Below are positions 59,416-62,923 of a DNA stretch of 64,000 nucleotides, one piece after another. Every line of letters starts with the position of its first letter. Positions within the stretch are counted from its first letter, which is position 1. Under the pieces are notes generated by a model. It had not been told where the DNA came from and did not search any database. It saw only the letters and a list, made by a program, of their open reading frames with translations. The stretch is from sequence record OQ718158.1; one strand, given 5' to 3'. The translations under genes and the position numbers were made by a program. This stretch comes from Escherichia phage vB_Ec-M-J.

Positions 59416-59445
59416 GACATACCATAAGTTTATGATATAATGTAA

Positions 59446-59477
59446 GGTGACAGCAGAATATGTTGTCACCTTTTTTT
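59446..59477 (+). terminator. rho-independent terminator
   Basis: GGTGACAgcagaatatgtTGTCACC then TTTTTTT. Confidence 0.7.
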
Positions 59478-59479
59478 AA

Positions 59480-60005
59480 TCCTGAAAGGTTCCATATGGA
59501 AATGATTGAAGCCTAATCCACTCGAAAAGTAGAGGGTAGATGAGTAGTCCTTTCAGTACGAACAGCAAATGAAACCCGTTAGATGATGGCATAGTTTGAA
59601 CCACTCACGGCAATGCGGCTGTATAAAGAACTCCAATAGGATAAAGAGAGTTCCTCGATAGACATATAAGGATCGCACCTTACCAATTATCTAAGGGAGA
59701 TTTCATGAGAAATTTGCGGTCGTAATTTATACAAAATAGTTGCGTCCAAAATTCGTGAAATCAAATACAAGTACTGGTCATATGGTATTTGTATTATGTG
59801 TCGGGATGTTTAAGACCGACGACCGTTGCTACAAGAACCGCGATAGAGAGAAACAGAGCAACCCGCTTTCGCCTCGTAAGAGAATTCGTGATATGAACTA
59901 TGTGAAGGCCACCAGCGTCAAACTTTTTTTGTTCTTTCCCCTGCGGGGGGATGAAATATGCTCAAGCAAACCCCGTCAATATTAATTAAAACAAATCATA
60001 GTACT
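59480..60005. other. ~520-bp GC-richer non-coding island (candidate structured RNA or degraded gene)
   Basis: no RBS-supported ORF; composition differs from flanks; ends with CCCCtgcGGGG hairpin. Confidence 0.3.
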
Positions 60006-60009
60006 TTCG

Positions 60010-60038
60010 TTGAATTAGACATGCGAAGCGTGTATAAT
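60010..60038 (+). promoter_or_regulatory. sigma70-like promoter
   Basis: TTGAAT-17-TATAAT. Confidence 0.5.
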
Positions 60039-60096
60039 TCGACTGGTGTTGATGAAGTCAACGCCATGTACAGTCATTGATGTTTCCATAGGAATA

Positions 60097-60642
60097 ATGA
60101 TGTCATTTATTAAAAAATCTAAAAGCGTCACTTATAAAACACTAGAATTTGTTGATTCAGACAATCAGAACCAAGACCAGGAGAATTTTACTGGTTTTGT
60201 TGTGATTAAAGAAAAGGGATGTATTTCGTACATCAAAGAGTTGCAGTGCGGTTTTGAATTAACTTCCATTAAGTTATTCCCAACCAAGAAGCCTACAATT
60301 CTTAAAGCTCGTTATGGGAACTACTACGAAGAGCGTTATAGTAATAATCTAATCAGTGCGAAAGCACATATCGTCAATGGTGAACTAGAAGGAGAATATA
60401 GAAAATTCAACCCACAAGGAAAATGTGTTTGGGTTAAATACTTCAATTCAGGAAATGATGTAACATCAGAAATTATTGAGTTTTTAGGTTTAACATGTAC
60501 CCTTGAAACTCTTCATGATTACAAATTTAATACTGAAGAAGAGTTTAATCTGATGATGCGTTATGGATCACATTTTAAATTTTTATATGAATACAACATT
60601 GACAGTAGTACTTTTGATGACATAGTACTTAACTGTCTATAA
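60097..60642 (+). CDS. hypothetical protein (start uncertain: 60049, 60097 or 60100)
   Basis: track ORF 60046 (GTG) begins at predicted TSS; RBS-like AGGA before ATGATG. Confidence 0.5.
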   Translation: MMSFIKKSKSVTYKTLEFVDSDNQNQDQENFTGFVVIKEKGCISYIKELQCGFELTSIKLFPTKKPTILKARYGNYYEERYSNNLISAKAHIVNGELEGEYRKFNPQGKCVWVKYFNSGNDVTSEIIEFLGLTCTLETLHDYKFNTEEEFNLMMRYGSHFKFLYEYNIDSSTFDDIVLNCL

Positions 60643-60658
60643 TCAAAGGAAATTATGT

Positions 60659-61183
60659 ATGTCGAAGAAGGATGCTTCGAAGAAAAAACAATCAGTACAT
60701 TTCAGTACTGGAAAAGATAACTGGACTACTCCAAAGGATTTCTTTGAAGATTTGGATGAACTCTGGGAATTTACACTAGATGCAGCGTGTGTCAAAGAAA
60801 CTGCATTGTGTGATAAGTTCTTTACACCAGAAGACAATTCACTTGAACAGGACTGGGGAAACAATATCGTGTGGCTCAACCCACCGTACAGTGATTTGAA
60901 AACGTGGTTATCTAAGGCAGTTGATGCATATAATAACGGGGCAACTGTAGTTATTCTTGTACCCTCAAGAACCGATACAATTGCTTTTCAGGATTATGCT
61001 GCTAAAATATGTGATTGTATTTGTTTTATAAAAGGTCGCTTAAAGTTCGGCATTCCTGAAGAACCAGATAAAAAGACGGACAGTGCACCATTCCCTAGTT
61101 GTTTAATAGTACTTGATAAGTATTTGACTCCAGCTAAAATCAACTATCTTAAATCTCTTGGTCAGGTGATGAAGAACATATGA
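60659..61183 (+). CDS. DNA N6-adenine methyltransferase (phage Dam-like family)
   Basis: WTTPKDFFEDLDELWEFTLDAAC ... IVWLNPPYS: NPPY catalytic motif in the arrangement of small phage Dam-type MTases. Confidence 0.7.
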   Translation: MSKKDASKKKQSVHFSTGKDNWTTPKDFFEDLDELWEFTLDAACVKETALCDKFFTPEDNSLEQDWGNNIVWLNPPYSDLKTWLSKAVDAYNNGATVVILVPSRTDTIAFQDYAAKICDCICFIKGRLKFGIPEEPDKKTDSAPFPSCLIVLDKYLTPAKINYLKSLGQVMKNI

Positions 61184-61713
61184 AAGAAACATGTATATTA
61201 TCATTTATGCGATGTAACCCAATACATCACGGACATGGTTTAGTGTTTGAAAAAGCTCAAGCACTACAAGAACAGTACAATGCGGATTTGAAAATATTCC
61301 TTAGTACCAGTACTGATGCCGTCAAAAACCCATTACCTCCTGAACTGAAAATGTACTATACAGAAGGATTTTACCCATCTGTACAAGAAAATATCTATAC
61401 AGAAGATAATCTGTTTGATATAATGAGAGAACTGGATGGAAAGTACTTAGATGTTCTTTTCATATGTGGTTCAGATAGACTTGAACCATTCCAAAAAACA
61501 CTTGACACGTACAATGGGAAGTTATATAATTTTTGTTCAATCAAGGCAGTTCAAGCTGGAATTGACCGAAATGTAAGTCGCTACAGTTCCACACAGATGC
61601 GTGAGTTTGCCAAGAATGAAGATTTTAATAGCTTCAGTACTTTTCTACCTGGTAATGATGATGCACTGAAAATTAAACTATTTGAAGATGTAATAAAATA
61701 CATGAGGAAATAA
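61180..61713 (+). CDS. HxGH-motif nucleotidyltransferase (NMN/NaMN adenylyltransferase-like)
   Basis: FMRCNPIHHGH near N-terminus and SSTQMR near C-terminus (ISSTxxR-like); ATGA overlap with MTase gene. Confidence 0.55.
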   Translation: MKETCILSFMRCNPIHHGHGLVFEKAQALQEQYNADLKIFLSTSTDAVKNPLPPELKMYYTEGFYPSVQENIYTEDNLFDIMRELDGKYLDVLFICGSDRLEPFQKTLDTYNGKLYNFCSIKAVQAGIDRNVSRYSSTQMREFAKNEDFNSFSTFLPGNDDALKIKLFEDVIKYMRK

Positions 61714-61715
61714 CT

Positions 61716-62009
61716 ATGTCAGTACTGTTTAAAACTAACCCAGTACTTTGGGATCAGAATGAGGATTCGGGTTTCCGTTCAATCCATGTTGAATTCAAAG
61801 GTAATACGGTGGTTGCAATCATTGCAAACAAAACTTTAGGAAACTGGACTGCACAAGTTGTTCCTATGGGATATTCTTATACATCTGATGAAGTTGCGTT
61901 TCTGGCTGAATTATATAGTCAAACACCATTCATCATCAATGTTCTAGAGCGTAGTGATAAGTTAACACATGACGAAGTAATTGACTTCCTGGCGAACTTA
62001 CATGTCTGA
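61716..62009 (+). CDS. hypothetical protein (97 aa)
   Basis: track ORF; start 2 nt after upstream stop. Confidence 0.55.
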   Translation: MSVLFKTNPVLWDQNEDSGFRSIHVEFKGNTVVAIIANKTLGNWTAQVVPMGYSYTSDEVAFLAELYSQTPFIINVLERSDKLTHDEVIDFLANLHV

Positions 62010-62887: not shown

Positions 62888-62894
62888 TACATAT

Positions 62895-62923
62895 AGCCCG
62901 ACATAAGTTCGGGCTATTTTTTT
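62895..62923 (+). terminator. rho-independent terminator
   Basis: AGCCCGacataagttCGGGCT then ATTTTTTT. Confidence 0.7.

Follow-up and report, generated by a model that had tools for sequence, protein, structure and literature searches.

The window analysed here is a stretch of 64,000 nucleotides (nt) of Escherichia phage vB_Ec-M-J, an Asteriusvirus-type jumbo coliphage (record OQ718158.1), and our subject is a pair of overlapping genes within it, open reading frames (ORFs) A and B. We consider it probable that these are two neighbouring genes of independent function, an orphan Dam-family DNA methyltransferase and an adenylyltransferase of a phage family. An earlier note on this DNA had described a Dam-like methyltransferase with an NPPY motif, overlapping by ATGA a nucleotidyltransferase with HxGH-type and SSTxxR-like motifs, and had seen in the two a notable pairing of DNA modification with the salvage of nicotinamide adenine dinucleotide (NAD+), while calling a functional link speculative. 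The motifs and the overlap were all present, as listed below; for a functional link between DNA modification and NAD+ we found no support. The features of the gene pair were as follows.

60659..61183, + strand: ORF A, predicted orphan Dam-family N6-adenine DNA methyltransferase, 174 amino acids (aa); from the ORF listing and profile matches
60878..60889, + strand: NPPY catalytic motif (motif IV), ORF A aa 74-77; from the translation
61164..61169, + strand: AGGTGA, Shine-Dalgarno-like, 10 nt 5' of the ORF B start; read from the sequence
61180..61183, + strand: ATGA start/stop overlap of ORF A and ORF B; from the sequence
61180..61713, + strand: ORF B, predicted stand-alone HxGH-superfamily nucleotidyltransferase of the phage 'cytitidyltransferase' family, 177 aa
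61225..61236, + strand: HHGH, the (H/T)xGH nucleotide-binding motif, ORF B aa 16-19
61324..61335, + strand: KNPL family motif, ORF B aa 49-52, followed by the conserved K57
61468..61479, + strand: GSDR family motif, ORF B aa 97-100, followed by the conserved Y111-N112-G113
61585..61602, + strand: SSTQMR, the C-terminal SxTxxR motif, ORF B aa 136-141

The predicted product of ORF B is an enzyme of the HxGH (HIGH) superfamily, of adenylyltransferase type. It has the (H/T)xGH motif, the C-terminal SxTxxR motif and a Rossmann-like fold, and it matched phrog_3041 over its full length (E=3.7e-52) as well as phrog_395 (E=3.9e-21), both named "cytidyltransferase". Across 150 family representatives the conserved core was GRxNPx(T/H)xGH, S.S.D..KNPL....K, GSDR, YNG..Y.F, SAG.R and S.T..R. 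In this set H19, S136 and R141 were invariant, G97, D99, R100, Y111 and K57 were each conserved at 99%, G18 and P51 at 97%, L52 at 95% and N50 at 91%. ORF B carries all the family-conserved residues (R11, P14, G18, H19, N50, K57, G97, D99, R100, Y111, N112, R130, S136, R141). Most of the wider family (79%) has a threonine at the first position of (H/T)xGH, and a histidine stands there in the RaK2-like subgroup. We also observed that the KNPL of ORF B aligned with KNPF...ER of NadM and KNPM...ER of phosphopantetheine adenylyltransferase (PPAT), while a HMMER alignment to Staphylococcus aureus NadD placed the G-x-D of the family's GSDR opposite the G-T-D of NadD, and Y111 opposite a tryptophan.

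The family is large. A word-indexed protein search reached only close relatives of ORF B, and an exhaustive profile search was used instead; it returned 3266 cluster representatives at E<=1e-3, 2123 of them at E<=1e-10. With tblastn against a phage collection, homologues were found in 537 phage records, among them 366 Synechococcus phages, 50 records named "Cyanophage" and 20 Prochlorococcus phages, the remainder being mostly enterobacterial RaK2-like jumbo phages and PA5oct-like Pseudomonas phages. ORF B is a full-length member of this 'cytitidyltransferase' family of T4-like cyanophages and jumbo phages (PHROG 3041 and 395; T4-GC 534 and 1137, the latter two being the family members in cyanophage S-MbCM6). 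It differs from the cyanophage members, of about 381 aa, in being a bare catalytic domain of 177 aa. Most relatives are longer (380-1200 aa), with the ORF B-like domain at the N-terminus and long extensions that have no Pfam matches. Among 74 longer relatives the partner domains were DUF5824 (16/74) and a Zeta-toxin/AAA_33 P-loop kinase (6/74), with single cases of ParB_N, a TmcAL-associated C-terminal region and an intein (Hint). Cyanophages carry two paralogues of the family within a few hundred bp of each other.

The name under which the family is filed is probably a misnomer inherited from the name of a Pfam family, CTP_transf_like (PF01467). ORF B itself scored 14.2 bits against this model, below the cut-off of 21 (E=0.05), and 34 of the 74 longer relatives matched it at E<=1e-4. 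The label 'cytitidyltransferase' is attached to the ORF B orthologues in PBECO4, 121Q, GAP32 and PHA46; we found no papers that use this spelling, and no function reported in the literature for any member of the family beyond speculation about nicotinamide mononucleotide (NMN) adenylyltransferase (NMNAT) activity. That speculation was made for the cyanophage homologues, which are often detected in virion proteomes (PMC10665884). No PADLOC defence or anti-defence model matched ORF B. With thousands of members that are probably misnamed, the family is one where assigning a substrate would annotate a very widespread phage gene.

As far as sequence and predicted structure allow a ranking, NadM-type NMNATs appear to be the nearest characterised relatives of ORF B. 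As a single sequence, ORF B had no match at E<=10 among solved structures. The family profile, searched against PDB, returned PPAT first (E=3.7e-5), followed by S. aureus NadD (E=5.5e-5) and NMNATs (7.5e-4 to 1.8e-3). When the family profile was compared by hhalign with single real sequences, the NadM-Nudix protein of Cronobacter phage GAP32 ranked highest (85.5% probability, E=5.7e-6, 159 columns), ahead of Escherichia coli NadR (67.8%, E=4.9e-5, 32 columns), NadD (26%, E=7.2e-4, 24 columns) and CoaD (16%, E=1.6e-3, 142 columns). An AlphaFold2 model of ORF B built from 45 sequences reached a predicted local distance difference test score (pLDDT) of 97.3; it superseded an earlier model from 12 close sequences (pLDDT 81.6) with weak Foldseek matches at a template modelling (TM) score of ~0.5. 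The similarity table for ORF B read as follows.

NadM-Nudix NMNAT (2qjt): 14.3
Archaeal NMNAT (1f9a): 13.8
PPAT (4nah): 13.1
NadD enzymes: 12.4-10.3
Human NMNAT3: 11.3
NadR: 10.7, 10.3
Flavin adenine dinucleotide synthetase: 10.6
TmcAL: 10.0
Glycerol-3-phosphate, choline-phosphate and Fom1 cytidylyltransferases: 9.6 or lower

The identity of ORF B to its characterised relatives was 13-19%, and the margins between the candidates were small. Each candidate also differed from ORF B in some respect. Compared with NadM-type NMNATs (1f9a; the NadM-Nudix proteins 2qjt and GAP32_112; the Nmnat of the NARP2 pathway), to which its sequence identity was 13-14%, ORF B has neither a Nudix domain nor an NAMPT (nicotinamide phosphoribosyltransferase) partner, and a BLAST comparison of GAP32_112 with ORF B gave no similarity at E<=1. 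The D-x3-N-x3-W stretch of NadM (DYVYNNSKW in GAP32), which we take, from archaeal NMNAT structures and as a lead only, to be a nicotinamide-binding motif, had no confident counterpart in the ORF B family by hhalign; the region placed opposite it was aligned with low confidence and was not conserved across the family. PPAT (CoaD) has RGLR where the ORF B family has GSDR, in both the profile and the hhalign alignments. The NadD models of NCBIfam matched ORF B over the HxGH stretch only, with scores of 18.6 for NF000840 (cut-off 150) and 16.5 for TIGR00482 (cut-off 112). The nucleotidyltransferase of the earlier note was borne out at the level of the superfamily; the narrower assignment, as an adenylyltransferase of NMN or nicotinic acid mononucleotide (NaMN), is plausible but lies below the curated NadD cut-offs.

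Judged by its profile matches, ORF A is predicted to be an ordinary phage orphan Dam-family enzyme; the profile scores put ORF A and ORF B alike well outside what chance would give. It matched the Pfam Dam family (PF05869) with E=1e-32 and 113.6 bits (cut-off 28.1) over profile positions 7-154 of 169, phrog_111 "DNA methyltransferase" with E=6.9e-57 and the PADLOC orphan methyltransferase PDLC03726 with E=2.1e-36, and the methyltransferase described in the earlier note was thereby borne out. Like the phage orphan Dam enzymes (PF05869, TIGR01712), ORF A has the NPPY motif, a typical size and no nearby restriction partner, none being annotated close to it in the genome of Escherichia phage WPEC5. 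It differs from them in falling just short of the cut-off of the NCBIfam equivalog TIGR01712, "phage N-6-adenine-methyltransferase" (92.3 bits against 97.05).

The frequencies of several tetranucleotides were compared with expectation in the window and in TH47, a complete 352-kb Asteriusvirus genome that is 97.6% identical over the gene-pair region. GATC was about 2-fold rarer than expected (141 sites against 246 in the window; 581 against 1243 in TH47), which bears on the question of which site the Dam-like ORF A would methylate. GTAC was over-represented 1.4-1.6-fold in the window and the TH47 genome.

The pair itself is ordinary and already known. A region of 2.3 kb around it is 98.4% identical to phage WPEC5. 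Several further coliphages (genomes of 350-385 kb) show 97-98% identity over it, and PBECO4 and 121Q, of the genus Asteriusvirus, about 84%. Both genes are annotated in dozens of deposited jumbo-phage genomes; for example, the WPEC5 record labels ORF A "DNA methyltransferase (Dam superfamily)" and ORF B "cytidyltransferase". The ATG of ORF B (61180-61182) overlaps the TGA of ORF A (61181-61183), with the junction sequence AACATATGAAAG. We rejected this overlap as a sign of a functional link and judged it to be nothing special because 4-bp overlaps are routine: a 42-kb stretch of the WPEC5 annotation has 91 junctions between genes on the same strand, of which 50 overlap to some extent and 13 by exactly 4 bp.

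A gene of the PF05869 family lies immediately 5' of the ORF B orthologue in four further phages, with the following junctions.

Salmonella phage PHA46: 8-bp overlap
Klebsiella phage RCIP0023: 4-bp overlap
Cronobacter phage GAP32: 3-nt gap (Dam, GAP32_068; transferase, GAP32_069)
Erwinia phage pEa_SNUABM_19: Dam immediately upstream

In all four phages the same uncharacterised genes flank the pair on both sides. Given the broad synteny of these genomes, the adjacency can be put down to common descent, and we found it confined to this one syntenic clade. The loci of the homologues in a PA5oct-like Pseudomonas phage, in cyanophage S-MbCM6 and in Melnitz had no Dam neighbour. There, Kelch and lectin-like genes neighbour the Pseudomonas phage gene, a DUF6267 protein lies beside the two 381-aa paralogues of S-MbCM6, and the Melnitz homologue is a 650-aa fusion with DUF5824.

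The earlier note had also proposed a search for a partner NAD-salvage gene elsewhere in the genome. None was found. A tblastn search of the complete TH47 genome and the window with the NAMPT and NadM-Nudix proteins of GAP32 gave no match at E<=1, while Sir2 and Nudix were found by the same search. E. coli NadR and PnuC gave nothing better than E=2.2 in TH47 (tblastn), and a hidden Markov model of the ORF B family detected only the ORF B orthologue in that genome. GAP32, on the other hand, has a separate NadM-Nudix gene (GAP32_112) and an NAMPT gene (GAP32_114) about 22 kb downstream of its Dam-transferase pair, with Sir2 and Nudix next in order. WPEC5 has kept Sir2 and Nudix at the syntenic site and has neither NadM-Nudix nor NAMPT there. 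We observed NAMPT homologues in GAP32, CBB, Eneladusvirus, Salmonella phage 7t3, PHA46, EJP2, RaK2 and K64-1; Asteriusvirus was absent among the best 40 records. In CBB, the listed NMNATs, NAMPT and PnuC are distinct from the gene next to Dam (PMC5259590).

Two phage NAD+ pathways serve as a comparison. NARP2 consists of Nampt and Nmnat, and 94% of the phages with Nampt also have Nmnat (bioRxiv 10.1101/2024.02.11.579819); NARP3 combines PnuC with a NadR-like enzyme (PMC13464706). Both include an HxGH-type NMNAT, which is their sole overlap with ORF B; of their other components, Nampt, NadR and PnuC were not found in TH47. We rejected a NARP2-type pathway with ORF B as its Nmnat, as GAP32 encodes NAMPT and NadM-Nudix in genes of their own and neither was found in Asteriusvirus.

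The reading that we favour, and hold to be probable, is thus that of two genes that act independently of each other. From its family membership, ORF A would methylate the phage DNA with S-adenosylmethionine as donor and so blunt host restriction. ORF B would bind ATP through HxGH and SxTxxR and most likely move AMP to a small phosphorylated metabolite, joining it to the phosphate there and releasing pyrophosphate; NMN or NaMN would be the single most likely acceptor candidate because the nearest characterised relative is a NadM-type NMNAT. The ATGA overlap would reflect the dense gene packing of the genome, with no special functional coupling. Several points weigh against this account. The roughly 2-fold depletion of GATC fits poorly with simple GATC methylation as protection; the Dam adjacency has been kept down to about 33-39% identity of ORF B (GAP32, pEa_SNUABM_19); and the ORF B family's activity as a transferase, its preferred nucleotide and its acceptor are all inferred. 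The kept adjacency can be set beside the idea of a two-enzyme module, for example one in which ORF B would supply an adenylylated donor or intermediate and its Dam-like partner would place on the phage DNA an adenine modification other than a methyl group. We regard such a module as very improbable: the pair lies within a conserved block of synteny that extends beyond it, and common descent accounts for the adjacency, the homologues of cyanophages, PA5oct-like phages and Melnitz do without a Dam neighbour, a Pfam scan of the 74 longer relatives found a methyltransferase domain fused to the ORF B-type domain in none of them, and ORF A, with its NPPY, is in length and make-up typical of PF05869.

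For ORF B by itself, the ranking of NadM-type enzymes is consistent with a true NMN/NaMN adenylyltransferase that would raise or restore NAD+ during infection, possibly against NAD+-depleting defences. This is a possibility that we consider less likely than not. The curated NadD cut-offs were missed by a wide margin, PPAT and NadD are almost as close to ORF B as NadM, and D-x3-N-x3-W, whose role is presumed, lacks a confident counterpart. NAMPT, NadM, NadR and PnuC were not found in TH47, and, on established biochemistry, NADase defences leave nicotinamide and ADP-ribose, from which an NMNAT would not by itself be able to regenerate NAD+. Cyanophages, which hold most of the family members, are not known to carry NAMPT, and we counted this against the NMNAT activity. 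Such an activity would moreover be redundant in GAP32 and CBB, which hold one or two dedicated NMNATs and NAMPT (PMC5259590). The closeness of PPAT is in keeping with ORF B adenylylating or cytidylylating another acceptor, such as 4'-phosphopantetheine (PPAT-like), flavin mononucleotide, a sugar phosphate or glycerol phosphate, perhaps as a virion-carried, early-acting enzyme as suggested for the cyanophage homologues; the RGLR of PPAT in place of GSDR sets that enzyme apart, and we think this alternative rather unlikely. It is less probable still that the family is an adenylyltransferase derived from NadM, peculiar to phages and novel in its role, be it the making of NAD+, an NAD-like or an ADP-linked metabolite without a phage NAMPT, or of an activated adenylate used together with the Dam-like neighbour; if true, it would give a function to a widespread conserved cyanophage gene.

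The favoured pair of independent genes is held in an operon of about six genes, bounded by two terminator-like hairpins, with the following features.

59444..59472, + strand: terminator-like hairpin and T-run upstream of the operon, 12-bp stem
60010-60038: promoter-like site of the operon
60046..60642, + strand: upstream gene, phrog_16210 (E=1.8e-81); the WPEC5 start is at the equivalent of 60100
61716..62009, + strand: downstream gene, phrog_14956 (E=2.4e-43)
62893..62917, + strand: terminator-like hairpin and T-run closing the operon, 9-bp stem

The phrog_16210 gene also lies directly 5' of Dam in GAP32, RCIP0023, PHA46 and pEa_SNUABM_19. Within ORF B we noticed a perfect 12/12 sigma-70 consensus (TTGACA, 17 nt, TATAAT) at 61502-61530 (+), facing the downstream genes, which could be an internal promoter or a chance occurrence in AT-rich DNA.

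Two side observations, a conserved RNA upstream of the operon and the absence of GCGC, deserve more attention than the gene pair. An "intergenic" stretch of about 570 nt just 5' of the operon (~59433-59985, + strand) was far more conserved than the flanking genes, with 96% identity to PBECO4 compared to 84% for these genes. Within it lies an element of about 450-500 nt that could be aligned across genera whose ORF B is only 33-57% identical to that of the window. It occurs in 4-5 copies per genome (four in TH47) and was found at 271 places in 61 phage records, all of them RaK2-like jumbo phages; an exact-pattern scan likewise detected it only in RaK2-like contigs (IMG/VR, metagenomes and two "bacterial" assemblies). 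Its parts in the copy next to the operon were as follows.

59436-59441, + strand: -10 box, TATAAT
59521-59919, + strand: covarying helices
59924-59930, + strand: U-run
59937-59950, + strand: conserved tail hairpin, with the tail reaching ~59979

Each of 25 distinct aligned copies was preceded by a -10 box (TATAAT in 24, TTAAT in one), most with an extended -10 TG, and many copies end in a hairpin and T-run whose stem varies by compensatory changes. In the copy next to the operon, the terminator-like hairpin of the upstream gene (59444-59472) lies just 3' of the element's -10 box and would therefore form the 5' end of the RNA. The same arrangement, with compensatory changes in the stem, was seen in PHA46, GAP32, pEa_SNUABM_19 and several metagenomic copies; RaK2-type phages have the hairpin before the -10 box instead.

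RNAalifold predicted 50 pairs, some of them in long-range helices; compensatory double changes were seen at 26. Paired cells made up 97.7% compared to 41-47% when the partners were slid by 1-3 columns, the cells with double changes numbered 217 compared to 4-22 in these slid controls, and none of 500 shuffles reached the observed score. Rfam 15 gave no match in the window at E<=1 and, when five divergent copies were searched, none on the element at E<=5; the element held no tRNA or transfer-messenger RNA, and we found no paper describing it in the literature. It would seem to represent a large structured phage RNA of a class not yet described.

The tetranucleotide GCGC was fully absent from the window (0 sites against 51 expected) and from the 352-kb TH47 genome (0 against 172). 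We found no mention of this absence in the literature. It extended to every RaK2-like sequence sampled, including 40 kb of GAP32 (0 against 29) and 174 kb of IMG/VR loci (0 against 87); the PA5oct-like, cyanophage and Melnitz loci do contain GCGC. This distribution suggests a clade-wide selection against the site by a GCGC-specific nuclease, either a host restriction enzyme or one encoded by the phage that leaves phage DNA uncut.

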